NCBI GenBank assembly: GCA_050953885.1
Contig: JBMNNJ010000001.1
Location: 527,437-591,436 of the forward strand
Length of the DNA stretch: 64,000 bases
From: Patescibacteria group bacterium
GTDB lineage: Bacteria; Patescibacteriota; Microgenomatia; 0-14-0-10-38-17
Direction of reading: 5' to 3'
Made by a program: the position numbers and the translations under genes. The notes beneath the pieces are model-generated. The model was not told where the DNA came from. It saw only the letters and a program-made list of their open reading frames with translations, and searched no databases. Shown here piece after piece: positions 11,349-37,176 of the stretch (position 1 is its first letter; every line of letters begins with the position of its first letter).

Positions 11349-11687
11349 ATTGGTTTAGCTATAACAAACTTGGCCCGATTTTAGCAAAAAATATAGGAAA
11401 AAACAAGCTCGGCCCTTGCGCAGTTTCTTAGTTTGTTGTAAGCTAGAATTGTTTAAAGTTAAAAGTCAAAATTCAAAATGCAAAAAGTTAGCAACTCGCA
11501 ACTGGTAACCAGTAACTCGTAATAAGAAGCCAAGATTAAATAACAAAGAGTAAAATGCAAAACCAAGCCAAGAATTAAAAATGTCTTTGAATTTTGATTT
11601 AGGTTTTAATCTTTGCGCTTTGCTCTTTGCGCTTTTTTTATTACCTATTACGGACTACTGATTTTGACTTTTGAATTTTGAATTTTT
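11349..11687. repeat. mosaic hairpin-forming intergenic repeat
   Basis: Arms 'aaagtcaaaattcaaaatgcaaaa ... ttttgacttttgaattttgaattttt', with modules 'gttagcaactcgcaactggtaaccagtaactcgtaataagaa' and 'tttgatttaggttttaatctttgcgctttg'. Confidence 0.8.
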
Positions 11688-12533
11688 ATGGAACAGCATC
11701 CTATTCCTCAACACATTTCCTCCTATGAGTTTCGCCTTATCGGCGAGATGACGCTAGGACAGTTTGCCCGTGTGGCCGGCGGGGTTATCGTTGGTTTGCT
11801 TTTCTACGCTCTTCCTTTACCCGGTTTTATCAAGTGGTTCCTTGTTTTTCTTGCGGTGGGAGGAGGAGCAGCTTTTGCTTTTTTTCCCATTGAGGGCCGC
11901 CCCTTGGAAACCTGGATTTTGGCCTTCTTAAAATCAATTTATTCTCCCACCCAGTATGTCTGGCGAAAAAGCGTCGCCTCTTTTGACTTTCAAACCCGAA
12001 CGCCCTCTGCCGAAGAAGCCCTTCCTCCTTCCCCAGCCACAAAAACCCTTACCCCTCAAGAGTTGGCTCTTTTGCGCACTTTTGGACAGAAAGATACCGA
12101 TTTTTATAGTGAAGAGGAAATTAAAAAAGCCCAGGCGCTTCTTGCTCTTTATCAGCAACCCACCAAAGTAACCCCTCCTCCCCCCCCGGCGGGGGTTAAA
12201 AAAGAAGAAAAGGCCAAAGAGACTCGCTTTGAGGAAAACCTGCCTTTTCCCGCCCCGCCGGAAGAGCCGAATATTATCGTCGGTATGGTGATTGACAAAA
12301 ACGGCAAGATTGTGGAAGGAGCAATTATTGAGATCAAAAACCAAGAAGGGGAAACGATGCGGGCAATGAGAAGCAACAAGTTGGGTCAGTTTCGCACTGT
12401 TTCTCCTTTAGGTGATGGCGAATACCAAATTTCCTGCGAAAAAGAAGGACTTAATTTTGATATAATGAAAATTAAACTTGAAGGGAAAATCCTTCCACCT
12501 ATTGAAATAAGAGAAAAGCCATCGGCTCTATAG
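11688..12533 (+). CDS. PrgI/VirB3-like membrane protein with C-terminal carboxypeptidase-regulatory-like beta domain
   Basis: N-terminus 'IPQHISSYEFRLIGEMTLGQF' plus two TM helices resembles the PrgI family. C-terminus 'IIVGMVIDKNGKIVEGAIIEIKN...GQFRT' resembles the CarbopepD_reg fold. Sits directly upstream of VirB4. Confidence 0.4.
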   Translation: MEQHPIPQHISSYEFRLIGEMTLGQFARVAGGVIVGLLFYALPLPGFIKWFLVFLAVGGGAAFAFFPIEGRPLETWILAFLKSIYSPTQYVWRKSVASFDFQTRTPSAEEALPPSPATKTLTPQELALLRTFGQKDTDFYSEEEIKKAQALLALYQQPTKVTPPPPPAGVKKEEKAKETRFEENLPFPAPPEEPNIIVGMVIDKNGKIVEGAIIEIKNQEGETMRAMRSNKLGQFRTVSPLGDGEYQISCEKEGLNFDIMKIKLEGKILPPIEIREKPSAL

Positions 12534-12566: not shown

Positions 12567-13337
12567 ATGCCAACCTCACCTGTCCGTGCCTCAACCCAAG
12601 AGGCCATTCCCATTGAAGACATTCGCGACAATTTAGTTATTTTAAAAGATGGCTCGGCGGCGCTGATTCTCCAAATAAGCGCCCTAAACTTTGACCTTCT
12701 TTCTCAAAGAGAACAGGAAGCGCTTATTTTTGCCTATGGCAGTCTTCTTAACTCCCTTAGTTTCTCAATCCAAATTTTTATTCGTTCGCAAAAAAAAGAC
12801 ATTACCGGCTACCTTAGTCTCTTGGAAAAGGCCAAAGATAATCAAAAAAATCCTCTTCTTAAGAAACTTATCACCGACTATCAAAAATTTATTAAAGAAG
12901 TGGTCACCAAAACAGAAATTTTGGATAAAAAATTTTATCTGGTGATTCCCTTTTCCTCACTTGAATTAGGAATAGGCGCGGCAACAAAAAGCCTTACCGC
13001 CAGTCTCCCTTTTTTTAAAAAATCTGCTCCCTCTCAAAAATTAGACTTAATTGAGGTTTCCCAAAAGGCGCAGACCTCACTTACCCCCAAGAGGGACCAT
13101 TTAATCAGGCTTTTTGCCCGCTTGGGGCTTTCTGCCCGCCAGCTCACCACCAACGAGCTTATTTACCTTTTCTTCCGTATTTACAATCCCAACGCCAAGG
13201 GGATTGAACCGGCCCTTACCAAAGAATATCTCTCGCCCTTAACCACCAGCGTTTTAACACCACCGAAAGAAGAAATCGCAAAGACAGAAAAGCCTGAAAC
13301 TCAAAATGAGAAGTCAGAAACAAAAGCGCCGCAGTAA
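12567..13337 (+). CDS. virB4: VirB4/TraE-family N-terminal domain (stand-alone ORF)
   Basis: 'IPIEDIRDNLVILKDGSAALILQISALNFDLLSQREQEALIFAYGSLLNSL.FSIQIFIRSQK' matches the Gram-positive VirB4/TrbE N-terminal region; ends in a low-complexity linker. Confidence 0.55.
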   Translation: MPTSPVRASTQEAIPIEDIRDNLVILKDGSAALILQISALNFDLLSQREQEALIFAYGSLLNSLSFSIQIFIRSQKKDITGYLSLLEKAKDNQKNPLLKKLITDYQKFIKEVVTKTEILDKKFYLVIPFSSLELGIGAATKSLTASLPFFKKSAPSQKLDLIEVSQKAQTSLTPKRDHLIRLFARLGLSARQLTTNELIYLFFRIYNPNAKGIEPALTKEYLSPLTTSVLTPPKEEIAKTEKPETQNEKSETKAPQ

Positions 13338-13798
13338 AGTCAAAAATCAAAATTTAAAAGTTTATCCGCCAGCTGGCGGATAAAATTCAAAATGAAAATG
13401 TAAAAAGTAAAAAGTTAGTAACTCGTAACTGGTAACCAGTAACTCGTAATAAGAAATCAAGATTAAATAGCAAATATCAAAATGCAAAACCAAGTTCAAA
13501 GACCAAAACTATAAATTAAATCTCAAAACGCAAATGACAAACTGCTCTGCCGGCAAGGCAGGTCTACATGGCAAATGTTAAAACTTTTTAAAGCTTAAGG
13601 TTATTTTTTTAGATTTTAGTTTTGAGTTGTAGTTTTGAGTTTTGACATTTGAGATTTAAGTTTATTTATTGTTTTTGAATTTTGATTTAGGTTCTAATCT
13701 TTGCGCTTTGCGTTTTACGCTTTTTTATTACTTATTACGAGTTACATATTACGGATTACTGATTTTTAATTTTGACTTTTGAATTTTGAATTTTTTTC
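13338..13798. repeat. mosaic hairpin-forming repeat lying between the two VirB4 halves
   Basis: Contains all modules: 'caaaa' arms, 'ccgccagctggcgg', the 'aactggtaaccagt' module, 'tgccggcaaggcagg', and ends 'ttttgaattttgaatttttttcATG'. Confidence 0.8.
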
Positions 13799-15631
13799 AT
13801 GCCCAATCCTCTTAACCAACTATTAGCAATAATCAAGCCTCCTAAAAAAGAAAGTCAGGCGGAGGCGGCCGCAGAAAAAGAAGGCGGCGACACCTTTGGC
13901 GCCGGCGTGCCCACCATTAAAGACATCATCGCCCCGGCCGCCATTGAAGTGGATTTTTCCTATCTTAAAATTGACAATAAATATTTACGGACTTTTTTTG
14001 TCGCCGGTTATCCCCGCTTTGTTTCCGCCAACTGGCTCTCGCCCCTGATTAATTTTGACCACACCTTGGATATTTCCATGTTTATTTATCCAGTGGAAAT
14101 AAAGGGAACCTTAGACGACTTGCGCCGGAAAATCGCCGAAATGGAAGCGGAAATTTCCACCGACATCCAGCGGGGCCGGGTGGTTGATCCCTCCACCCAA
14201 GCAAAATTAGAAGACGCCCTTGCCCTTCAAGAAGAGTTAGCCAAAGGAACAGAGCATTTTTTTCAATTTAGCCTCTATATCACCATTCCCGCTGATTCTC
14301 TTCAGGAATTGGAAGAGGTAAGTCGTGAAGTTGAAGCCACCTTGGGTTCGCTTTTAATTATTGCCAAAACGGCTAGCCTGCAAATGGAAGAAGGCTTTAA
14401 AACCACTCTCCCTTTGGGAGTTGATCTTTTAAATATTACCCGTAATATGGACACCACCTCACTAGCCACCACTTTCCCTTTTACTTCCTCAGAACTGACC
14501 GCCAACGAGGGGATTTTATACGGTGTTAACCAACATAATGGTTCTTTGGTTATTTTTGACCGTTTCAATTTGGAAAATTCTAATGCGGTTATTTTTGGCA
14601 AGTCCGGTTCGGGGAAAAGTTATCTGGTAAAACTTGAAGCCCTGCGCTCTTTAATGATGGGCACGGAGCTGATTATTATCGACCCCGAGGAAGAATACCA
14701 CCAGCTTTGTGAAGCAGTAGGAGGCGAGTATATTAAATTTGGTTTTGGCTCGCGGGCAAAAATCAACCCTTTTGATCTCCCCAGTCAGCAACTATCGTTT
14801 CCCGGCGAAAAAACCGAAAATGAACTTGGCTTCAAGCTTCTCTCTCTTCATTCGCTTTTAAAAATAATGTTAGGAGAGATGAGCGCTAACGAAGAAGCAA
14901 TTTTGGACCGAGCACTCGTGGCCGCTTATAAAAGCAAGGGAATCACTCCCGATCCCGCCACTTATGAACAGGAGCCGCCGCTTTTAGAAGATCTTTATAA
15001 AACTCTTTTGGGAATGGAAAGTAAAGAGGGTCAGCTTTTGGCTACCCGTTTGGAAAAATTTGTTAAAGGCTCGCTTACCGGCATTTTTGACCAGCATTCC
15101 AATGTTAACCTAAAAAATCCTTTTACGGTTTTTTCCTTAAAAGACGTCGAGGGCGACTTAAGGCCGGTGGTAATGTTTATTATCCTTGATTACATTTGGA
15201 CCAAGGTTAAGGCAGAGCTTAAAAAAAGAATCGTCATTGTTGATGAGGCGTGGTATTTAATGCGCTATCCTGATTCGGCCCAGTTTTTGGAATCTATCGC
15301 CAAAAGGGCGCGCAAGTATTATCTGGGGCTTTCCACTATCACCCAAGACGTTCCCGATTTTCTTTCTTCGCCCTATGGGGAATCAATTATCACCAATTCT
15401 TCTGTTCAAATTTTAATGAAACAGCATCCGGCCGCTATTGACCGCTTAGGCGAGGTTTTCTATCTTTCCGAGGGGGAGAAAAACTTCCTCCTCTCGGCCA
15501 ATATTGGCGAAGGGCTTTTCTTTGCCGGCGAAAACCATGTGGCCATTAAAGTCATCTCCTCCCCTCAAGAACATAAATTGGTTAGTTCCAGTCCGAAAGA
15601 GAAAATAAAAGAAACGACCAAAGAAAAATGA
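13799..15631 (+). CDS. virB4: VirB4/TraE-family ATPase, central and C-terminal domains
   Basis: 'FVAGYPRFVSANWLSPLINFDHTLDIS' VirB4 mid-region; Walker A 'GKSGSGKS'; Walker B 'IVIVDEAW'. Confidence 0.8.
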   Translation: MPNPLNQLLAIIKPPKKESQAEAAAEKEGGDTFGAGVPTIKDIIAPAAIEVDFSYLKIDNKYLRTFFVAGYPRFVSANWLSPLINFDHTLDISMFIYPVEIKGTLDDLRRKIAEMEAEISTDIQRGRVVDPSTQAKLEDALALQEELAKGTEHFFQFSLYITIPADSLQELEEVSREVEATLGSLLIIAKTASLQMEEGFKTTLPLGVDLLNITRNMDTTSLATTFPFTSSELTANEGILYGVNQHNGSLVIFDRFNLENSNAVIFGKSGSGKSYLVKLEALRSLMMGTELIIIDPEEEYHQLCEAVGGEYIKFGFGSRAKINPFDLPSQQLSFPGEKTENELGFKLLSLHSLLKIMLGEMSANEEAILDRALVAAYKSKGITPDPATYEQEPPLLEDLYKTLLGMESKEGQLLATRLEKFVKGSLTGIFDQHSNVNLKNPFTVFSLKDVEGDLRPVVMFIILDYIWTKVKAELKKRIVIVDEAWYLMRYPDSAQFLESIAKRARKYYLGLSTITQDVPDFLSSPYGESIITNSSVQILMKQHPAAIDRLGEVFYLSEGEKNFLLSANIGEGLFFAGENHVAIKVISSPQEHKLVSSSPKEKIKETTKEK

Positions 15632-15651: not shown

Positions 15652-18600
15652 ATGCCCGACCAAGATAAATTAATCCTTTCCCGCGAAACCGCCGCACATC
15701 TTCTTGAGGGAATCTCTTTTTTTAAAGAAAATCCCGCCGCCAAAGAATGGCAAAATTTAGATAAGAATCTTTTTATTTTTCTTTGCCGCGAACTTTGTCA
15801 ATTACCTGTCGAGGAAGAAGAAAATCTTAATGATTATCTTGCCCGTCTTGAGGATTTTTTAAAAAAAATCGTTAATGAAGAGCTCACCGCCCCTTCCCTG
15901 CCCCAAAATTTGGAAGAATTAGTTGAGGCTTGGGAAAAATTTTTGGCCCAAAAAGACGCCCAAGCGCCACCTCCTCCCAAAATAAATCTTCCCACCGTTG
16001 AAGACTGGATAAAAACTTTACAGGAAAAAAGGGTTCAGGAAGAGGTCGCCCCCCAAGTTGAAAAGGCGCTTGAAACCGCCGCTCCCCACCTTTCCTCCCA
16101 AGATAAGGCTGTTCTTGGAGAAAAGATAAGCGAAGAGATCGCCAAAACCCCCTTCCTTATCCTTCCCCGGGAAGAAAAAGAAGCGGTTGCCCAAAGGGTG
16201 GTTGAGAAAAGCCTTGAAGAAAAACAAATCCTTTTAGGAGAAGAACAAAGGCAACTGTTAACTAAGACAATGGTTAGTCCGGCGCCAACGCTTCCTTCCC
16301 AAAAGCAAGTGGTTAAGGAAATCGGAGACCAGGTAGAAAGTTTAGTAAGCCAGCATCTCCCCGACCTTTCTCCTGATCAAAAACAACTTCTCTCTCACCA
16401 GTTGGTTGAAGAAGTAATTACGCCGATAATTCCCCCCGAGGAGGCTTTTCTCAAGCCTTCGCTTTGGCTGGCCGAAGCCCCGGGGTTAAAAACACCTCCT
16501 GAAATAGCCGCTAAGGCAGAGACAATCATTGAAACCAGTGTCCCTCAAGCTTCAGGGGAACAAAAAGAAGCCTTAAAGAAAGAGGTTGAAAAAATCATTA
16601 GAGGAGAAGAAGAGCTTGGTCCGGCCACCAAAGAATGGCAGGAAACTTTTCGCCAGACACTGGCGAGAGAGGAAATAAAACCAAGGGTAGAAGCAGTTCT
16701 TGAAACCGCCGCTCCCCACCTTTCCTCCCAAGATAAGGCTGATCTTGGAGAAAAGATAAGCGAAGAGATCGCCAAAACTCCCTTCCTTACCCTTCCCCGG
16801 GAAGAAAAAGAAGCGGTTGCCCAAAGGGTGGTTGAGAAAAGCCTTGGGGAAAAACAAATCCTTTTGGGAGAAGAACAAAGACAGCTATTAACTAAGGCAA
16901 TGGTTAGTCCGGCACCAGCGCTTCCTCCAAAAGAAAGAGTCGTTAGAGAAATTATTACCCCACCTGTTTTTAAAAACTTTCAGGAACAAATCAAAGAAGC
17001 CCTAAAAATTTCTTTAGGAAAAGTTGAGCCGGAAACCATTAGCGAGGTGAGTCCCATTGTCAGCGAAGCGCTGGCGGTTAATCTTCCTTTCTTAACCCCC
17101 CAAGAATTAGCAAGCCTAAACCCTTCAGAAAAAGGCGAAATCGTGGAAAACACTATCGAGGCAGCCCTGCCGGATATTGGCGAATTTTTGGTCGCCAAAG
17201 GAATTAACCTTTCCCCCCAAGAAACTGCCAATTTTTTAGATCAGCTTACCATTGCCACAAATGATAATTTAGAAAAGCTCACCATTGTTCCGCCCGAAAA
17301 TCGTCTCCCCCAGGAAAAAATTACCAAAACCGAAGGAAGCGCCACCCCCGCCTTAGCCGCCCTCCTTCATCCCCGTCAAACCGCCACTCTCCTTTTTAAC
17401 CCCCAATTAAGAAGAAACCTTGAGGCTTTAGATAAAAACCCCTCCCTTCCTTTTAGTCTTACTGTTGAAGGAGAAGAGGCCTCGCCGGGAGAAAAAATTA
17501 AAAATATTTTTCTTCAAAAGGGAATTAATTTTCAAAGCGTTAATTTAGTCAAGCCCCTAAAAGAGGAAACCGAAAGCTTAATATTGGCCGCCAAGGGAAT
17601 TACCAGTGCCGACTTAAACTTGGCGATTAAGACAAGCCGGGAGGAAAACCGACCGGTTGAAGAAATTAGTAAATTAGAACAGCTTTTTGTCCGTCAGTTG
17701 GATTTTGAAAAAAAGTTTCCCCAGTTAGCCCAAAAATTTTATCGCCTAAGAAGAGCGCGTGAAGTTGTTTCCGGCCAGAAAAACGACCAAAAATTACCTT
17801 CCTGGCCTTTTGCCCAAATTAAAAGCCAAACTAACCTTGAAACAACAAGATGGAACTTTTTAAGAACTGCTAATCGTTTTTTGGAAAAAATAGGCTTGGT
17901 TAAAAAAGAGGAAAGTCCTTCAGGGAAAATTATCCAATCCTCTCTGGTTTGGTATTATCCCCAAAAAATTGGCCAGGCAATCTCCTCTTTTTGGCAAAAA
18001 ACAGGGATTGGCAAAACCATTAAATCTTGGTTTTCCCAACAAACTCATCGTTTTTGGCAAGGCGCTTTGGGACAAATAAGAGGATTTAGTAAAGCGGGAG
18101 TTAAAAAAGCGGCTCAGGAAGGCGCCAAAAAAGGGGTTGCCAAAGCCATCGCCTGGCTTTCTACCAAGCTGGCGGCCACCAAACTGGGGGCGGCTTTAGG
18201 CTCAATTGCCCCGGGAATAGGCAATGCGGTCGGCGCGGTAGTGGGATTTGTGGTTGATACCGGCGTCTCGCTTTTTAAAAAAGGCGGTGAATTTTTAGAA
18301 AAGCTTACCGGCGGCCAAACCGAAGCCGAACAAAAACTAAAAGCCGCTCTTGGCCCATTTTCTTTTCTGGTTTCCCCTTTAGTTTTAATTTTTATTATCG
18401 CCTTAGGCGCGCCACTTATCCTTGTTTTTTTAACTGTTACCAATATTGGTGGCGCTTTTTTGAGCCCGGCGGGGGGAGAAGAATTTGTCCCCCCGGGTAA
18501 TTCTCTCCCTCCTAATATTAACGGTCATTTATCGGAACAACTAGTTCAAATGTTTATTAACTGCGGTTTAGGAAACCCCGAGAGAGAAAATGCTACTATT

Positions 18601-19062
18601 TCTGTAAACAAAGGAAGCCTTTCTCGCTTTATAGACTGCATTGAGAACAGCGATCTAGACCCTTGGCAAAAAAACGCTCTCTCCGACAGGTTTGAAAGCA
18701 ATACTAATAAATTTTATTATTTTCAATGTGTTGGTTTTGTTTTTGGCGTGGAAGCTATCCAAGGAAGAATAATGCCTTCAAATGATGTTTGTTGGGCTAC
18801 CGCAAACCAGTGGGGCAAAGAAGAATGTTATAAAAATAGTCCTGAATATGAATTTTTAGGAAATGACTGCTCTGGAGTACAGCCCGGAACTATTGCTGTT
18901 TGGTTCGGCAGCACTACTGGTCATATCGGTATTATCACCGGCATAGAAGAAGAAGTAGGTGAGCGTCGATTCCGCTTTACCTCAGCATGGGGTAATAATG
19001 GTATTATTGATATCCGCTCTTTTCCCTGTAGTCAATTTGATGCTTTCATCAGACCTCGATAA
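15652..19062 (+). CDS. large T4SS-associated protein with internal tandem repeats, TM segments and C-terminal CHAP peptidoglycan hydrolase domain (VirB1/PrgK-like role)
   Basis: C-terminus 'FQCVGFVFG...GTIAVWFGSTTGHIGII' carries the CHAP Cys/His; two ~227-bp near-identical copies at 16069-16295 and 16699-16925. Confidence 0.55.
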   Translation: MPDQDKLILSRETAAHLLEGISFFKENPAAKEWQNLDKNLFIFLCRELCQLPVEEEENLNDYLARLEDFLKKIVNEELTAPSLPQNLEELVEAWEKFLAQKDAQAPPPPKINLPTVEDWIKTLQEKRVQEEVAPQVEKALETAAPHLSSQDKAVLGEKISEEIAKTPFLILPREEKEAVAQRVVEKSLEEKQILLGEEQRQLLTKTMVSPAPTLPSQKQVVKEIGDQVESLVSQHLPDLSPDQKQLLSHQLVEEVITPIIPPEEAFLKPSLWLAEAPGLKTPPEIAAKAETIIETSVPQASGEQKEALKKEVEKIIRGEEELGPATKEWQETFRQTLAREEIKPRVEAVLETAAPHLSSQDKADLGEKISEEIAKTPFLTLPREEKEAVAQRVVEKSLGEKQILLGEEQRQLLTKAMVSPAPALPPKERVVREIITPPVFKNFQEQIKEALKISLGKVEPETISEVSPIVSEALAVNLPFLTPQELASLNPSEKGEIVENTIEAALPDIGEFLVAKGINLSPQETANFLDQLTIATNDNLEKLTIVPPENRLPQEKITKTEGSATPALAALLHPRQTATLLFNPQLRRNLEALDKNPSLPFSLTVEGEEASPGEKIKNIFLQKGINFQSVNLVKPLKEETESLILAAKGITSADLNLAIKTSREENRPVEEISKLEQLFVRQLDFEKKFPQLAQKFYRLRRAREVVSGQKNDQKLPSWPFAQIKSQTNLETTRWNFLRTANRFLEKIGLVKKEESPSGKIIQSSLVWYYPQKIGQAISSFWQKTGIGKTIKSWFSQQTHRFWQGALGQIRGFSKAGVKKAAQEGAKKGVAKAIAWLSTKLAATKLGAALGSIAPGIGNAVGAVVGFVVDTGVSLFKKGGEFLEKLTGGQTEAEQKLKAALGPFSFLVSPLVLIFIIALGAPLILVFLTVTNIGGAFLSPAGGEEFVPPGNSLPPNINGHLSEQLVQMFINCGLGNPERENATISVNKGSLSRFIDCIENSDLDPWQKNALSDRFESNTNKFYYFQCVGFVFGVEAIQGRIMPSNDVCWATANQWGKEECYKNSPEYEFLGNDCSGVQPGTIAVWFGSTTGHIGIITGIEEEVGERRFRFTSAWGNNGIIDIRSFPCSQFDAFIRPR
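16069..16925 (+). repeat. two near-identical ~227-bp direct repeats (period ~630 bp) inside the 1136-aa CDS
   Basis: 'cttgaaaccgccgctccccacctttcctcccaagataaggctg...' repeated with only a few substitutions. Confidence 0.8.
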
Positions 19063-20893: not shown

Positions 20894-21552
20894 GAATTAA
20901 AACGAATGAGAAACGAATGGACACGAAAAAAAATGGCTGGCGCAAAAATAATTCAAAATGCAAAAGTCAAAATTCAAAATTGCAAGTCAAAAGTTAAAAG
21001 TTTTTTCGCTTTACTTTTTAATTTTATCCACCGACTGGCGGACAGAATCATTCTTGTAGCTGTCATTCCTGAATTAAATTCAGGACAGGCTCTGACGAAA
21101 GTCAGGATCGGCCTTAAAGCTTGACGCTTGAAACGCTTGAGGCTTGAATCGCTTTAATCGTTTAATGTTTTTACGTTTCAAACGTCTCCTGTATTTCAAG
21201 CATTTCACGCATGATTCTGAATCAAGTTCAGAATAACAATAAGGGTTAATCCGCAACAATTTAATCGTTTAACAATATAACAGTTATTATTATATCTTTA
21301 TAGTATTAGTTTTAGTAGGCAATGTCAATAAGTGGATTTAGACTGAAATTAACCATGATGTTAATGTTGGTTAATTAAATTTAGCGATTTTCCCCGTCTT
21401 TTTCTTTTTCATACCTTGTATTTTCTTTTCAGTTTTGGGTTTTTTTAGTGAGAAAAAACAAGGATAAAAAAGAATTTTTTGTGGAAAAAAATAAATAGTT
21501 TGTGGAAAACTAAATTTTTAGTTTTCCACAATTTAATAACATAATAACAAAT
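20894..21552. promoter_or_regulatory. candidate chromosomal origin (oriC) in the dnaA-dnaN intergenic region
   Basis: DnaA-box variants 'tttgtggaaaa' (x2) and 'ttttccacaa' at 21470-21535; 'ttatccacc' at 21018; AT-rich unwinding-like stretch 21240-21400. Confidence 0.55.
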
Positions 21553-23336: not shown

Positions 23337-23691
23337 AAGAAAAAATTGTTAAAATACGCGAATGAAAACGAATAAAATTCAAAACGCAAAATTAAAAATC
23401 AGTAATCCGTAATATGCAACAAAAAAAGCGCAAAAAGCAAAGTGCAAAGATTAGAACCTAAATTAAAATTCAAAGATATTTTTAATTCTTGGCTTTGGTC
23501 TTTGAGCTTGGTTTTGCATTTTACTCTTTGCACTTTAATCTTGTTTTCTCACGAGTTACTAACTTTTTACTTTTTACATTTTCATTTTGATTTTATCCGC
23601 CAGCTGGAAGATTCGTCAGAATGACGAATCGCCTTGCGCATTACGAACCGCATACATTATACCTAATATTAGATATAAAATACAACCTTGC
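23337..23691. repeat. mosaic hairpin-forming intergenic repeat (inverted arrangement of the 11.4-kb modules, plus half of the 'ccgccagctgg' palindrome)
   Basis: 'cagtaatccgtaatatgc...gcaaagattagaacctaaat...cacgagttactaacttttt'. Confidence 0.75.
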
Positions 23692-24615: not shown

Positions 24616-25063
24616 AGCAAAAAAGGGGAAATTTTGGTAGGATTAAGATAGTCAAAAATCACAAGATCACAAGATCATAAAATCACAAGAGCATGAAATC
24701 ATGAAATCAAAAGAGCAAAAGAACAAAAGGCAACTGCTAAAATTATTGGCGCGGATTGAATAATCCATAATGGGTAATAAAAATCGCAAAGCGCAAATAT
24801 CAAAAATTAGAACCTAAATCAAAGTTCAAAAACAAAAGATAAACTCAAACCTCAAAACTCAAAACTCAAATCTACAACGCAAAACTTAAAACTTGAAAGA
24901 CAAAAACAGAATTACAATTTAGAAATACAAATATTAAGCCCTAAAGTTTTTTAGTTTTAAGTTTTAACATGTAGTTTTGCCATTTGCGTTTTGAGATTTG
25001 AGTTTATTTTTCGTGTCCATTCGTTTCTTATTCGCGCATTTTAGCTATTTATCTTACCACAAA
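24616..25063. repeat. mosaic intergenic repeat containing 170-bp core element copy 2 (~24841-25012)
   Basis: Same core 'gaaagacaaaaacagaattacaatttagaaatacaaatattaagccctaaag' with complementary arms. Confidence 0.8.
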
Positions 25064-26764: not shown

Positions 26765-26989
26765 AGTATAATATAGTCAAAAGTCAAAAATACACGAATT
26801 AAAACGAATTAGAAACGAATGAACACGAATGAGCGAATAATGTCATCCTGATGAAAATCAGGATCTGTCTTAATACTTACCAAAAACAGATTCTGTCCAC
26901 CAGCTGGCGGATTAACTTTTAATTTTTAAATTTTAGTTATAAGGATTAAGGAATAATTATAATTCTTATCAAAGATACCGTTAATCTTT
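26765..26989. repeat. mosaic intergenic repeat ('acacgaattaaaacgaat' module, 'atcctgatgaaaatcaggat' hairpin, 'ccaccagctggcgg')
   Basis: Shared modules with 20.9-kb and 61.3-kb regions. Confidence 0.7.
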
Positions 26990-27652: not shown

Positions 27653-27790
27653 AGGCACTAAGATATTAAGAGACACGATAAAAAAATTCAAAATTTAAAA
27701 TTCAAAAGTCAAAAGTGCAAGTTAAAATTCAAAAGCAAAGCAAAAAAATTTTTAACTTTTAACTTGCAATTTTAAATTTATCAGATTTCT

Positions 27791-28030
27791 ATGGATAACC
27801 CCCAAAATTTGCTTAAATTATTTCAGGACTTTTCTCTTTGGTCGGTTTGGCGTGTTTTTCTTTTGGTCTATTTTTTAGGCTATTTAATTTTTAATCTTAT
27901 TTTAGGACGGCAAATCACCTTAATGAGTCAGCTTTTTGAGACAAACTTGAAAGGCTTGCTTAAAATTTTTAACTGGTTGCTTTTTGGTTTGGGGGTTTTG
28001 GGTTTTTTAATGGCTTTAACTTTGGGGTAA
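27791..28030 (+). CDS. small membrane protein, hypothetical
   Basis: 79 aa with two hydrophobic helices. Confidence 0.3.
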   Translation: MDNPQNLLKLFQDFSLWSVWRVFLLVYFLGYLIFNLILGRQITLMSQLFETNLKGLLKIFNWLLFGLGVLGFLMALTLG

Positions 28031-28084
28031 AAAGCGCCGGAGCGCGAGTTTTGGAAAAAAGAGGTGTTTATGATATGCTTTTAA

Positions 28085-29860: not shown

Positions 29861-30174
29861 AGAGACTAAGAGACTAAGATACTAAGATACACGATAAAAC
29901 AAATTCAAAATTCAAGATTCAAAAACAATAAATAAACTCAAATGTTAAATCGCAAAACGCAAAACTACAACTCAAATCTTAAAACTTGAAAGACAAAAAC
30001 AGAATTACAATTTAGAAATACAAATATTAATCCCTAAAGTTTTTTAGTTTTGAGTTTTAACATGTAGTTTTGCCATTTGCGTTTTGAGTTTTGAGATTAT
30101 CTTTCGTTTTCTCTTCGTGTCAATTTGTGTCTTCTAATAATTTAGCAATTTAACAGTTTGACAATTTAATTTTT
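29861..30174. repeat. mosaic intergenic repeat containing 170-bp core element copy 3 (~29931-30105)
   Basis: 'gatactaagat' module then the core with complementary arms. Confidence 0.8.
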
Positions 30175-30541
30175 TGGTGGAGATGGGGAGGAATGACCTC
30201 CCGTCCGAAAAAAACCCTTCTGAATTTCTCCAAGCTCAGTTAGCCTTTTAAATTTTCTTTTGGGATTTTAGCCGCTAACCGCTTTTTCCCAAAATAGCCT
30301 TTAATTCTCTGCTTTTTTCCTTAAGGCAAAGGGAAAAAGCGCCTCTTGCCTTGCGTTTTCACCTTCCCTGCCCCGACAAGAGGGGGAAAAGAAGATGTCT
30401 TTTCCTTACGCGAAAGCGTAATTCAAAGAGTAGTCGACATCATTGTCGGCATTCTTTTTTTGGTGAATTTTAACGGGGTGATCACCTTCCCCGGCTTGCC
30501 CTTCAGAACAGGCCTTTTCCGTCGATTCAAAGAGCATCCCC
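30175..30541 (-). ncRNA. ssrA: tmRNA (SsrA)
   Basis: Minus-strand 5' 'GGGGATGCTCTTTGAATCGACGG' is close to the E. coli tmRNA 5' end. 3' 'GGACGGGAGGTCATTCCTCCCCATCTCCACCA' has an encoded CCA and a G3:U acceptor pair. Tag ORF 'GCC GAC AAT GAT GTC GAC TAC TCT TTG AAT TAC GCT TTC GCG TAA' gives ADNDVDYSLNYAFA*. Confidence 0.8.
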
Positions 30542-31114: not shown

Positions 31115-31299
31115 GATAAAAAACTCAAAACTTAAATCTAAAAAAAAACAACTTTAAGCTTTAAAAAGTTTTAACATTTGCCATGTAGATTTGAGATTTG
31201 CGATTTAAGTTTGCCATTAAACTGTCAACCATTTGTTATTTTTTTATTTCTTCGTGTTGTTTATCTTTGTCTCGTGCTTATATTATACTTTATCTACCG
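31115..31299. repeat. mosaic intergenic repeat fragment
   Basis: 'gccatgtagatttgagatttgcgatttaagtttgcc' module. Confidence 0.55.
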
Positions 31300-31998: not shown

Positions 31999-31999
31999 G

Positions 32000-32073
32000 T
32001 GCGCCTGGCCGGATTTGAACCGGCACTTTTTGGCTCCGGAGGCCAACGCTTTATCCAGTTAAGCTACAGGCGC
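32000..32073 (-). tRNA. tRNA-Arg (anticodon CCG)
   Basis: Cloverleaf: acceptor GCGCCUG/CAGGCGC, anticodon loop CUCCGGA, T-arm GCCGG-UUCAAAU-CCGGC. Confidence 0.8.
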
Positions 32074-32078
32074 GAAAG

Positions 32079-32166
32079 CGGAGGGAGGGAGATTCGAACT
32101 CCCGTGGGCCGTAGGGCCCGCAAGGTTTTCGAGACCTGCCAGATAAGCCACTCCTGCATCCCTCCA
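32079..32166 (-). tRNA. type-II tRNA with long variable arm, probably Ser (anticodon CGA)
   Basis: Acceptor GGAGGGA/UCCCUCC, T-arm GGGAG-UUCGAAU-CUCCC, variable arm GGGCC-CUAC-GGCCC, loop CUCGAAA; anticodon-stem folding partly ambiguous. Confidence 0.55.
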
Positions 32167-32263
32167 AAGCAAGATACTAAGGGACTAAGATACTAAGAAA
32201 TAAGAATAAAATTTTTCTTCTCCCCGGGTTTCTTTGTATCGGGTATCTTTGTATTTTACCTAG

Positions 32264-32337
32264 TGCGCCTGGGGCGATTTGAACGCCCAACCGCCAGCTC
32301 CGCAAGCTGATGCTCTATCCAGTTAAGCTACAGGCGC
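32264..32337 (-). tRNA. tRNA-Arg (anticodon reads GCG)
   Basis: Acceptor GCGCCUG/CAGGCGC, anticodon arm UCAGC-UUGCGGA-GCUGG, T-arm GGGCG-UUCAAAU-CGCCC. Confidence 0.7.
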
Positions 32338-32754
32338 AAAAGAAAAGTTAAAAGTTAATCCGCCAGCTGGCGGATTAAAAATCAAAAATCTAGCGCAAAG
32401 CGCAAAGATTAAAACGCAAAACCAAGCTCAAAGACCAAAACCATAAACTGAATCTCAAAACGCAGATGGCAAGCTTAAATCTCAAAACTACATGTTAAAA
32501 CTCAAAACTAAAAAACTTTAGGGCTTAATATTTGTATTTCTAAATTGTAATTCTGTTTTTGTCTTTCAAGTTTTGAGTTTTGCGTTGTAGTTTTGCGTTT
32601 TGCGATTTGAGATTTGAGTTTATTTATTATTTTTGAACTTTGATTTAGGTTTTGATCTTTGATATTTGCACTTTGCGTTTTTTTATTACGAATTTTGCGT
32701 ATCTTTCTTATTATATCAAACCTCACTTGCAAAACGCCAAAAGTTTGTTATACA
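32338..32754. repeat. mosaic intergenic repeat containing an inverted copy (copy 4, ~32471-32630) of the 170-bp core element and 'taatccgccagctggcggatta'
   Basis: Reverse complement of the core 'taatatttgtatttctaaattgtaattctgtttttgtctttc'. Confidence 0.8.
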
Positions 32755-35136: not shown

Positions 35137-35299
35137 AGAGGTATAATAAGTAAAGTTAAAATTCAAAAGTCAAAAGTCAAAATTGCAAGTCAAAAGTCAA
35201 AAGTTTTTTACTTTACTTTTTAATTTTAACTTGTACTTTTGACTTTTAAATTTTGAATTTTGAATTTTAATTTCATTCGTGTATTTTAAAACATAAAAC
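35137..35299. repeat. mosaic intergenic hairpin repeat
   Basis: 'aaattcaaaagtcaaaagtcaaaattgcaagtcaaaagtcaaaagtttttt ... ttgacttttaaattttgaattttgaatttt'. Confidence 0.75.
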
Positions 35300-36917: not shown

Positions 36918-36990
36918 TCCTCGGTAGCTCAGTTGGTAGAGCGTCCGCCTGTTAAGCGGCTGGTCGGAGGTTCGAGTCCTCCCCGAGGAG
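36918..36990 (+). tRNA. tRNA-Asn (anticodon GTT)
   Basis: Acceptor UCCUCGG/CCGAGGA, D-arm GCUC-AGUUGGUA-GAGC, loop CUGUUAA, T-arm GGAGG-UUCGAGU-CCUCC. Confidence 0.8.
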
Positions 36991-37176
36991 CACGGTCTTT
37001 CTTACTCAAAACAGAAAAGCAAGTTTAGTTTATCCTTAAAATACTTCAAAAACCTATTGAAGAGTGTGAGCTTTTATTTTCTCTGGAAAATAGCTCCTAA
37101 AAGTTGTTTTAGGAGAGACGGTAAATACGTTTTTTGTCAAAGCTTCAAAAAAGCAATAGAAAAATAATAGCTTTGT

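Follow-up and report, generated by a model that had tools for sequence, protein, structure and literature searches.

In type IV secretion systems of the pGO1/pSK41 type (MPF_FATA class), a VirB4-N-terminus homologue of ~200-260 aa, TrsD, is encoded directly upstream of an ATPase of ~600-660 aa, TrsE(VirB4). The TrsD and VirB4 pair has already been described in Patescibacteria (Quinonero-Coronel et al., 2025; PMC12102498), where TrsD is the most abundant component of the type IV secretion system, with 1,664 copies adjoining virB4, and is essential in Ca. Southlakia epibionticum (PMC12102498). The secretion system itself is reported to be essential for the epibiotic lifestyle of these bacteria. 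In the pGO1/pSK41 and the patescibacterial systems alike, the pair stands between a VirB3/PrgI-like gene upstream and a gene for a cell-wall hydrolase downstream, and the patescibacterial clusters are chromosomal and lie near dnaN/dnaA (PMC12102498). The locus that we describe here shares this gene order and chromosomal setting; unlike its described counterparts, whose two genes overlap or abut, it carries 461 nt of repeat sequence between them.

The locus is part of a 64-kb stretch of DNA, hereafter the window, and is a standard chromosomal Patescibacteria type IV secretion cluster with the order prgI/virB3 - trsD - virB4 - CHAP hydrolase, all on the plus strand and sited a few kb from dnaN/dnaA. 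The first gene of this conserved cluster encodes a PrgI/VirB3-like membrane protein (11688-12533; Pfam PrgI, E=1.5e-7) with a C-terminal CarboxypepD_reg-like domain (E=3.8e-7), and it was found upstream of trsD in all relatives examined. The TrsD-like gene (12567-13337, 256 aa; hereafter the N-ORF) and the VirB4 ATPase gene (13799-15631, 610 aa; the C-ORF) follow. As proposed in the initial annotation, these two ORFs sum to 866 aa and occupy different reading frames (12567 mod 3 = 0 versus 13799 mod 3 = 2). The low-complexity sequences quoted there for the tail of the first and the head of the second were correct, and so was the placing of a repeat between them (13338-13798), a mosaic palindromic element of 461 bp. 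Starting 20 nt after virB4, a 1136-aa protein (15652-19062) carries a C-terminal CHAP domain (Pfam, E=2.1e-6); it is the VirB1/PrgK-like cell-wall hydrolase of the cluster, and its gene is syntenic in relatives.

The C-ORF belongs to the CD1110 family of VirB4 ATPases. It matched NF045971 (CD1110 VirB4) with 395.8 bits (E=3.8e-118), above the curated cut-off of 325 bits, and Pfam P-loop_TraG with E=1.3e-30, and its ATPase domain aligned to the structure 4AG5 in the PDB (E=1.7e-46). The Walker A motif GKSGSGKS (14597-14620, plus strand; residues 267-274) aligned to the P-loop of 4AG5, and the Walker B motif IVIVDEAW (15230-15253, plus strand) corresponds to residues 478-485. The C-ORF covers positions 186-734 of NF045971, compared with 3-735 for the fused protein of a relative (P0263). 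The sole part missing from it is thus the N-terminal ~185 positions of the profile, which are provided by the separate N-ORF.

Kinship of the N-ORF to VirB4 is shown by profiles and fold, because a sequence search against PDB chains returned only matches at chance level (E>=0.04). The N-ORF matched NF045975 (VirB4_plasma) at profile positions 102-281 (E=1.5e-9), VirB4_CagE at positions 5-124 (E=4.8e-4) and Pfam TraC_F_IV (E=0.0027), and in a Foldseek search with its AlphaFold model the 14 best PDB matches were all R388 TrwK/VirB4. The match to TrsD (NF041427) spans positions 14-142 of 201 (E=2.9e-9) at 37 bits, far under the curated NCBIfam cut-off of 200 bits; to judge from this score, the protein is therefore distantly related to the TrsD subfamily of staphylococci and by that model no member of it. 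PF26593 was not reported for the N-ORF in our Pfam scan, and precomputed annotation assigns it to homologues of 92-95% identity. This TraC-like family is annotated on every equivalent of the neighbour gene, including the 256-aa gene in same-species contigs (L010, L011). On NF045975 the two ORFs cover positions 102-281 and 269-891, so that jointly they span the full VirB4 profile with no conserved segment absent. The assignment of the VirB4 N-terminal domain to the first ORF and of the ATPase part to the second is thus borne out.

The division into two genes is not particular to this genome. In about 75 related Microgenomatia species, trsD and virB4 are two separate genes with no repeat, and most of them overlap by 4 nt (ATGA) or stand 1-5 nt apart. 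Across 80 GTDB species loci, the distance between the genes was mostly -4 to +5 nt, two loci were fused, and gaps above 100 nt were limited to three relatives (L006, L014, L051) and the present species. Three further loci (L021, L046, L087) had been scored as falsely large by automatic measurement, owing to N-masked stretches or missed ATGA starts, and were corrected by reading the sequences. In neighbourhoods of relatives with the order prgI-trsD-virB4-hydrolase, the trsD/virB4 gaps were +2, -4, and +1 nt. The best 120 homologues of each ORF all stand alone, with lengths of 162-294 aa among the matches to the N-ORF and 574-775 aa among those to the C-ORF, and an ATPase motif occurs in only one of 149 N-domain cluster representatives (50% identity). 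Plasmids of Bacillota are split likewise: in Pontibacillus the two genes overlap by 11 nt, and in Mesobacillus a trsD gene is annotated. Because a few lineages carry fused genes (L077, L078, P0263), the polarity of the split within Patescibacteria rests on parsimony and the Bacillota outgroups, which point to an ancestral pair. Programmed bypassing or frameshifting that would fuse both ORFs was considered and rejected: the overlapping genes of relatives are separate, each with its own stop and start.

The start codon of virB4 and its basic N-terminal head (M-x-x-L-x-x-L-h-K-K...) are kept in relatives without the repeat, and the repeat therefore did not provide them; by this comparison of sequences, the start and the head (residues 1-35, a basic linker) are ancestral. 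The C-terminal end of the TrsD-like protein differs in this respect. Its conserved core comprises residues 1-227, and in alignments conservation stops after LTKEYxxPL. The tail (residues 216-256; 13212-13334, plus strand) is low-complexity, lineage-specific and predicted to be disordered (pLDDT <50), and is ~22 aa longer than in relatives with overlapping genes. A stretch within it (13301-13325) weakly resembles heptads of the repeat (13387-13411, 72%). The trsD tail may thus be of repeat origin, on a similarity of ~72% that is statistically insecure in such A-rich low-complexity sequence.

The spacer itself (13338-13798) is a 461-nt imperfect palindrome of mosaic build, whose left arm is rich in A and whose right arm is rich in T. 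Degenerate 7-nt units make up both arms, in which GC hairpins are embedded, and TRF found periods of 7, 13, and 14 nt only. As RNA, it is predicted to fold at -128.8 kcal/mol (z = -7.5), a value equalled by none of 100 shuffled sequences. Elsewhere in the window, pieces of it recur in both orientations, at 80-95% identity, and occupy 11 or more intergenic regions. One shorter copy (11454-11686), with left and right arm modules and the centre missing, lies directly upstream of prgI; its segment 11454-11567 is 86% identical to 13381-13494, and 11582-11686 is 80% identical to 13670-13773. The left arm also contains a perfect GC-rich palindrome, TTTATCCGCCAGCTGGCGGATAAA (13361-13384), of which a variant occurs at 32355-32378; this is the lone terminator-like hairpin of the spacer, and it has this form only on the minus strand, on which no gene terminates there. 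A metagenome scan with the 22-nt core of this palindrome found it exactly in 20 contigs of unrelated contexts, none of which had trsD or virB4 beside it and only one of which (L110) had the heptad arms, a result that says little on the distribution of the repeat family. A known RNA family, an intron or a riboswitch was rejected as the identity of the spacer, given that no Rfam model matched at the gathering threshold; under permissive settings the best match was an Enterococcus sRNA at a sub-threshold E=0.19.

The repeat is lineage-specific, being missing from the loci of the ~75 other species, and the spacer lengthens with closeness of relationship, from 70 to 126 and 222 nt in relatives, and reaches 461 nt in the window. 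Between the window and one close relative (L006), the outermost ~57 nt of the left end of the spacer and ~30 nt of its right end are nearly identical, with dS of 0.45-0.76 in the flanking genes. When a second relative (L014) is included, the three share their outer ends at this site and differ in the interiors, and no target duplication was recognisable in this three-way comparison. Spacers at other operon positions also differ among close relatives, and in L006 modules of the repeat occur elsewhere in the operon.

Taken together, we consider it highly probable (about 90%) that the split into TrsD and VirB4 is ancestral and that the repeat later filled the junction between two genes that were already separate. 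The TrsD-like protein represents that portion of full-length VirB4 which is N-terminal and lies near the membrane and VirB3, and the CD1110-family ATPase represents the rest, in an ancient arrangement that is common to pGO1-like systems of Bacillota and older than the repeat. The abutment or ATGA overlap of the genes in nearly all Microgenomatia implies translational coupling, which is a prediction. In the present species and its nearest relatives, the junction has been colonised by fast-evolving, self-complementary repeats of A-rich and T-rich 7-nt units and has grown from ~0 to 70, 126, 222, and finally 461 nt. Once the stop/start overlap was broken, trsD would have read into A-rich sequence derived from the repeat, acquiring its K/E/T/Q-rich tail and present stop. 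The element may have been tolerated because it folds on itself: in the RNA stem that is predicted, the region of the trsD stop codon (13336-13338) is base-paired with the run of U before the virB4 AUG (13795-13797), an arrangement that would keep stop and start juxtaposed and could allow a terminating ribosome to re-initiate at virB4. In L014 the predicted stem leaves stop and start unjoined. Co-transcription, coupling, and a role of the hairpin are predictions only. Recombination or slippage between existing copies, and not the movement of a discrete transposon, probably accounts for the spread of the repeat. More speculatively, these heptad-built, 5'-A-rich/3'-T-rich self-complementary repeats might form a class, hitherto undescribed, of intergenic elements with fast turnover in Shapirobacteria-like Patescibacteria, which would expand within operons as one long hairpin keeping stop and start juxtaposed (long-range termination-reinitiation) and may carry a portable AT-rich leader before several start codons; we regard this generalisation as doubtful.

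The initial annotation had read the locus differently, as a repeat inserted into the inter-domain linker of a single-gene VirB4, supplying a stop and a new start and leaving either a functional two-piece protein or a recently disrupted gene. Such a recent insertion could draw on the position of the repeat exactly at the domain boundary, on the low-complexity tail of the first ORF adjoining it, and on the rare fused TrsD-VirB4 genes elsewhere in Microgenomatia. It is very improbable, and is refuted on the terms that the initial annotation itself had set, in view of the same split without a repeat in related species; further evidence against it is the split on Bacillota plasmids, the virB4 start and head kept in repeat-free genomes, the earlier publication of the TrsD and VirB4 split (PMC12102498), and the strong purifying selection on both halves. 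With dN/dS of 0.08-0.15 in the TrsD-like gene and 0.03-0.05 in virB4, a recently disrupted gene is excluded and a functional two-piece VirB4 is upheld. What survives of the insertion is secondary: the repeat was inserted or expanded at the junction after the genes were already separate, and the present stop, with the low-complexity tail, may be derived from it, although it did not cause the split and the new start was not its contribution. Equally improbable is a spacer produced by assembly, through a mis-join or a collapsed repeat between adjacent genes. The repeat is indeed multi-copy in the genome, and two contigs of the same species (L012, L013) begin inside the spacer. Against this, two JGI metagenomes, which stem from different samples and were assembled independently (L010, L011), cross it with 100% identity over the 461 nt and flanks (531/531 columns), and related species have shorter homologous spacers at the same trsD-virB4 site.

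It is less improbable, though still unlikely, that the repeat is a selected regulatory module that uncouples virB4 from trsD and gives it its own promoter or 5' leader, possibly with a hairpin for processing or stability. The last 27 nt of the right arm (13769-13795) recur with 100% identity immediately before the prgI start codon (11661-11687), and the near-identity of the spacer ends with L006 despite the divergence of the flanking genes would fit such a role, as would the promoter/terminator scan, which predicted no plus-strand intrinsic terminator in the spacer. AT-rich leaders are moreover the norm in this genome because it does not use Shine-Dalgarno sites. However, the same scan detected no sigma-70-like promoter in the spacer, and the interior of the element is wholly different among the three close relatives (461, 126, 222 nt). 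The presence of the same modules at other operon positions in L006 is more like selfish or neutral dynamics, and gene conversion among copies can account for the conserved ends. The least probable of the readings that we weighed is a TIGR/CRISPR-like guide-RNA array, or else a gene for some other structured non-coding RNA. CPR bacteria are reported to contain TIGR arrays, which are not easily recognised from sequence (PMC12045711), and the spacer region is highly structured. These arrays are nevertheless built of tandem ~36-nt units that combine edge and loop repeats with dual spacers (PMC12045711), whereas the spacer is one long dyad with neither a 36-nt periodicity nor tandem units. Copies of the element are scattered among a dozen intergenic sites and not gathered into one array beside an effector gene, no Nop-domain Tas gene adjoins the spacer, whose flanks are the TrsD-like gene and virB4, and the Rfam search reported above likewise speaks against it.

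With the ancestral split as the preferred reading, the apparent split VirB4 is the canonical TrsD and VirB4 of Patescibacteria, and the false lead of a fresh disruption or a new split is removed. The two-gene organisation was already known, and the expansion of a repeat between normally coupled genes is a minor curiosity. For annotators, such loci should not be recorded as pseudogenes, and the TrsD-like gene supplies the seemingly missing VirB4 N-terminal domain. The series of gaps of 0, 70, 126, 222, and 461 nt in near-identical operons also offers a natural test of how far coupling and expression tolerate such spacers where initiation does not use Shine-Dalgarno sites.

Among known repeats, the spacer resembles the REP/BIME and MITE-like elements (E. 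coli BIMEs, Neisseria Correia, Rickettsia palindromic elements) in being multi-copy, strictly intergenic and imperfectly palindromic, modular or mosaic, present in both orientations, and variable between close relatives. Fixed ends, or terminal inverted repeats with target duplications as in MITE-like repeats, were not identified in the comparison of the window, L006, and L014, and no RAYT or other transposase associated with the repeat came to light in the 64-kb window, short of a systematic screen of its ORFs. The spacer differs from the Rickettsia elements in not lying in-frame inside coding sequence. Unlike in all of these, the arms are made of degenerate 7-nt units, and it is invariably the 5' arm that is A-rich and the 3' arm that is T-rich.

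Compared with TrsD of the pGO1/pSK41 type, the N-ORF is diverged, as its profile score indicates, and has gained a lineage-specific disordered tail. With full-length VirB4 (R388 TrwK; CD1110 of Clostridioides/Bacillota elements) the pair shares the complete profile, distributed here over two polypeptides instead of one, and the model of the N-ORF matches the N-terminal region of TrwK. In R388, the VirB4 N-terminal domain contacts VirB3, VirB8, and the membrane (PMC12857230), and by analogy the TrsD-like protein would be the part making these contacts. At the junction, the ~10-aa linker of the fused relative P0263 is replaced here by a 49-aa tail on one protein and a 35-aa head on the other.

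The two ORFs at 12567-13337 and 13799-15631 are both on the plus strand, in different frames and 461 nt apart, as the initial annotation described. The first (N-ORF, TrsD-like, 256 aa) has a weak TraC_F_IV match, and the second (C-ORF, VirB4 ATPase, 610 aa) matches P-loop_TraG, AAA_10, and DUF87. They are preceded by a PrgI/VirB3-like gene (11688-12533) and followed by the gene of a CHAP-domain protein of 1136 aa (15652-19062), with the spacing prgI-33-trsD-461-virB4-20-CHAP (in nt). Minus-strand dnaN and dnaA come after the cluster, and the cumulative GC-skew minimum of the window falls at ~21 kb; the T4SS cluster of Patescibacteria is often found near dnaA/dnaN (PMC12102498). The CHAP-domain gene itself contains a 254-nt direct duplication (16069-16322 vs. 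16699-16952, 91% identity, 630 nt apart), which gives two near-identical protein segments (…VEKALETAAPHLSSQDKA…). Directly 5' of prgI, close relatives carry a PF05635 (23S_rRNA_IVP-family) gene (L006:2773-3171, L007:2635-3009); the window has none there, and a 339-nt repeat-bearing intergenic region (11349-11687) is present instead.

Together the two ORFs correspond to a whole VirB4, as originally proposed, since they cover full-length VirB4 profiles in a complementary manner. On NF045975, the N-ORF covers profile positions 102-281 and the C-ORF 269-891; on NF045971, the C-ORF covers positions 186-734 with 395.8 bits, above the 325-bit cut-off. P0263, a fused TrsD-VirB4 relative of 787 aa, spans positions 3-735 of the latter profile, and such fusion is rare among relatives. 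Alignment with P0263 showed every conserved segment to be present; at the junction, the split proteins have a tail and a head, both variable, in place of the ~10-residue linker of the fused protein. The C-ORF possesses Walker A and Walker B motifs and aligns with 4AG5, a structure of the VirB4 C-terminal domain (E=1.7e-46). In the AlphaFold model of the N-ORF, the core is predicted with confidence and residues 216-256 are disordered; R388 TrwK/VirB4 chains make up the best 14 PDB matches of this model (probability 0.77-1.00).

A two-gene VirB4 is already known. TrsD, with its prototype in pGO1, is remotely homologous to the N-terminus of VirB4. It is reported to be the most abundant T4SS component of Patescibacteria (2,272 homologues, 1,664 adjoining virB4) and is listed among the essential genes of Ca. 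Southlakia epibionticum (PMC12102498). The best 120 database homologues of each ORF are all stand-alone, being 162-294 aa long for the N-ORF and 574-775 aa for the C-ORF. An exhaustive search among 50%-identity cluster representatives recovered 2,264 proteins matching the N domain; only one of the 149 best (P0263) contains an ATPase motif, and ~100 of these 149 (P0241-P0389) have instead long C-terminal tails of up to ~500 aa. Low complexity and an enrichment in Q, N, P, S, and T characterize these tails; the window protein, whose tail is short, stands at the small end of this widespread variable feature. In the relatives whose neighborhoods were compared, the gene order is prgI-trsD-virB4-hydrolase, and the trsD/virB4 junction measures +2, -4, or +1 nt. 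A survey covered 80 loci of different GTDB species, in which three seemingly large gaps proved to be artefacts and were corrected by eye. The junction mostly lies between -4 (an ATGA overlap) and +5 nt and exceeds 100 nt only in L006, L014, L051, and the window species. Bacillota plasmids carry the same split: in Pontibacillus, the gene of a hypothetical protein and that of a CD1110 VirB4 overlap by 11 nt, and in Mesobacillus an annotated trsD is located 22 nt upstream of the ATPase.

Two of the 80 loci are fused. L078:1877-4381, from a Microgenomatia-like MAG, encodes an 834-aa in-frame TrsD-VirB4 fusion, and together with P0263 it shows that the split or fused state is evolutionarily labile. 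The other, L077:2739-7493 (Candidatus Amesbacteria GW2011_GWA1_47_20, LCOA01000014.1), is a single 1584-aa ORF joining PrgI/VirB3-like, TrsD-like, and VirB4 parts; an intein-like insertion of ~590 aa interrupts it directly after the GSGKS of Walker A, with the extein continuing at ...VHN|SYLVKLE. Because a survey of Patescibacteria T4SS reported no VirB3-VirB4 fusions (PMC12102498), L077 may be an exception.

The initial annotation attributed the split to a repeat inserted in the inter-domain linker, supplying a stop and a new start. A mosaic repeat of 461 nt is indeed present between the ORFs (13338-13798), and it is not an assembly error, since two independent JGI metagenome assemblies of the same species (L010, L011) match the window in all 531 aligned columns across it. 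However, a causal role of the repeat in the split is refuted: homologues, neighborhoods, the species survey, outgroups, and the literature agree on an ancestral split that exists without it, which the initial annotation had itself named as a finding that would refute its reading. Neither did the repeat supply the virB4 start, as this start, like the basic head that follows it, is ancestral and also found in repeat-free relatives (window, MPNPLNQLLAIIKPPKK; L007, MVDLSNLLTKIKPAAK; repeat-free relatives, MISLKNLTKRGKK and MNLTDLIKKTKK). The repeat is rather a secondary insertion at the junction, being absent from the other ~75 species loci and variable in close relatives.

A recently disrupted gene had been offered as another reading. 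In pairwise comparisons of the window with the related loci L006, L014, and L007, dN/dS was 0.08-0.15 in the N gene and 0.03-0.05 in the C gene, at dS values of 0.45-2.6. Both genes are therefore maintained by selection, and recent disruption is excluded. What stands of the original interpretation is a two-piece VirB4, which these substitution rates indicate to be functional, with the repeat added secondarily; the repeat as cause of the split does not.

Most likely, the TrsD-like protein and VirB4 act jointly as one VirB4. In R388, the N-terminal VirB4 subdomain contacts VirB3, VirB8, and the membrane (PMC12857230), and by analogy the TrsD part would supply the subdomain making these contacts. 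The ATGA overlap of most relatives implies translational coupling there. In the window, a predicted mRNA stem pairs the trsD stop region (13336-13338) with the U-run before the virB4 AUG (13795-13797), and also 13331-13333 with 13800-13802; the same geometry is predicted in L006, not in L014. Because the base of this predicted stem joins the trsD stop and the virB4 start, a ribosome terminating at trsD would melt it beside the start, which could preserve coupling and account for the tolerated insertions. The extra ~22 residues of the trsD tail may represent read-through into repeat-derived A-rich sequence, to which similarity is weak, perhaps dating from after the ancestral stop/start overlap broke. 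The missing Shine-Dalgarno motif before virB4 is normal here, because almost no gene in the window has one within 22 nt of its start. TATAAT-like boxes occur 7-15 nt 5' of several start codons (e.g., 2418, 19086, 33355, 58763; starts are those of the longest ORFs, so approximate). Together, these features suggest short-leader or leaderless mRNAs.

The spacer forms an extended, imperfect palindrome that contains numerous inverted-repeat pairs (RNA MFE -128.8 kcal/mol, z = -7.5); its A-rich left and T-rich right arms both consist of degenerate 7-nt units. It matched no Rfam family, and neither a plus-strand terminator nor a sigma-70-like promoter was predicted in it; a TIGR array was rejected on periodicity and architecture. 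The spacer is lineage-specific and fast-changing. The same junction measures 126 nt in L006 (VirB4 96% identical), ~222 nt in L014 (97%), with yet another mosaic, and 70 nt in L007 (81%), with a different short-unit repeat. L006 and the window have the outermost ~57 nt of the left end and ~30 nt of the right end in common but differ in the interior; the L006 operon gaps are 34, 126, and 388 nt, and the central modules of the window spacer sit 3' of virB4 there. In L014, the prgI-trsD gap is 167 nt. Few enlarged trsD-virB4 spacers occur in other Microgenomatia (L035:1675-1761, L030:4304-4352, L047:4181-4232, L007:4930-5001), made of short tandem 7-8-nt units such as CTTCAAT x5, ATTAGAC/ATTAGAA, and CTAAAAT/CTAAAGT; short-unit repeats may thus be a general route of intergenic DNA growth in this group. 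Expansion of this junction by repeats amounts to a small, lineage-specific curiosity.

Sequences matching parts of the spacer with 80-95% identity, in both orientations, are present in 11 or more further intergenic regions located between 2 and 35 kb. A shortened form of the palindrome occupies 11454-11686, just 5' of prgI, and the 27 nt that immediately precede the prgI ATG are an exact copy of 13769-13795. Besides 11349-11687, repeat-bearing regions are 2104-2417, 20894-21552, 23337-23691, 24616-24997, 26765-26989, 27653-28084, 29861-30174, 31115-31197, 32338-32658, and 35137-35299. Their 5' half is always A-rich and their 3' half T-rich, with 7-nt units AAAGTCA, AAACGCA, GTAACTC / TTTTGAG, CTTTGCG, and ATTTTGA. 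They are concentrated in that half of the window which surrounds dnaN/dnaA and the GC-skew minimum, 36-64 kb being nearly free of them. The window also encodes a tmRNA and four tRNAs (Arg-CCG, Ser-CGA, Arg-GCG, Asn-GTT; 30175-30541 (-), 31999-32337 (-), 36918-36991 (+)), and repeats of this family flank the tmRNA and the tRNA cluster. The 22-nt perfect palindrome TTATCCGCCAGCTGGCGGATAA is found at 13363-13384, with a variant at 32355-32378, and exact copies occur in 20 metagenome contigs (L096-L115) of varied GC content and context, usually as the core of a longer hairpin; several copies are terminator-like, and heptad arms are found only in L110. We found no defined ends or target duplications and came across no transposase in the 64-kb window; these repeats probably spread by recombination or gene conversion together with slippage among 7-nt units. 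The spacer behaves as a member of a multi-copy family of mosaic extragenic palindromes, and in this it resembles REP/BIME or MITE elements.
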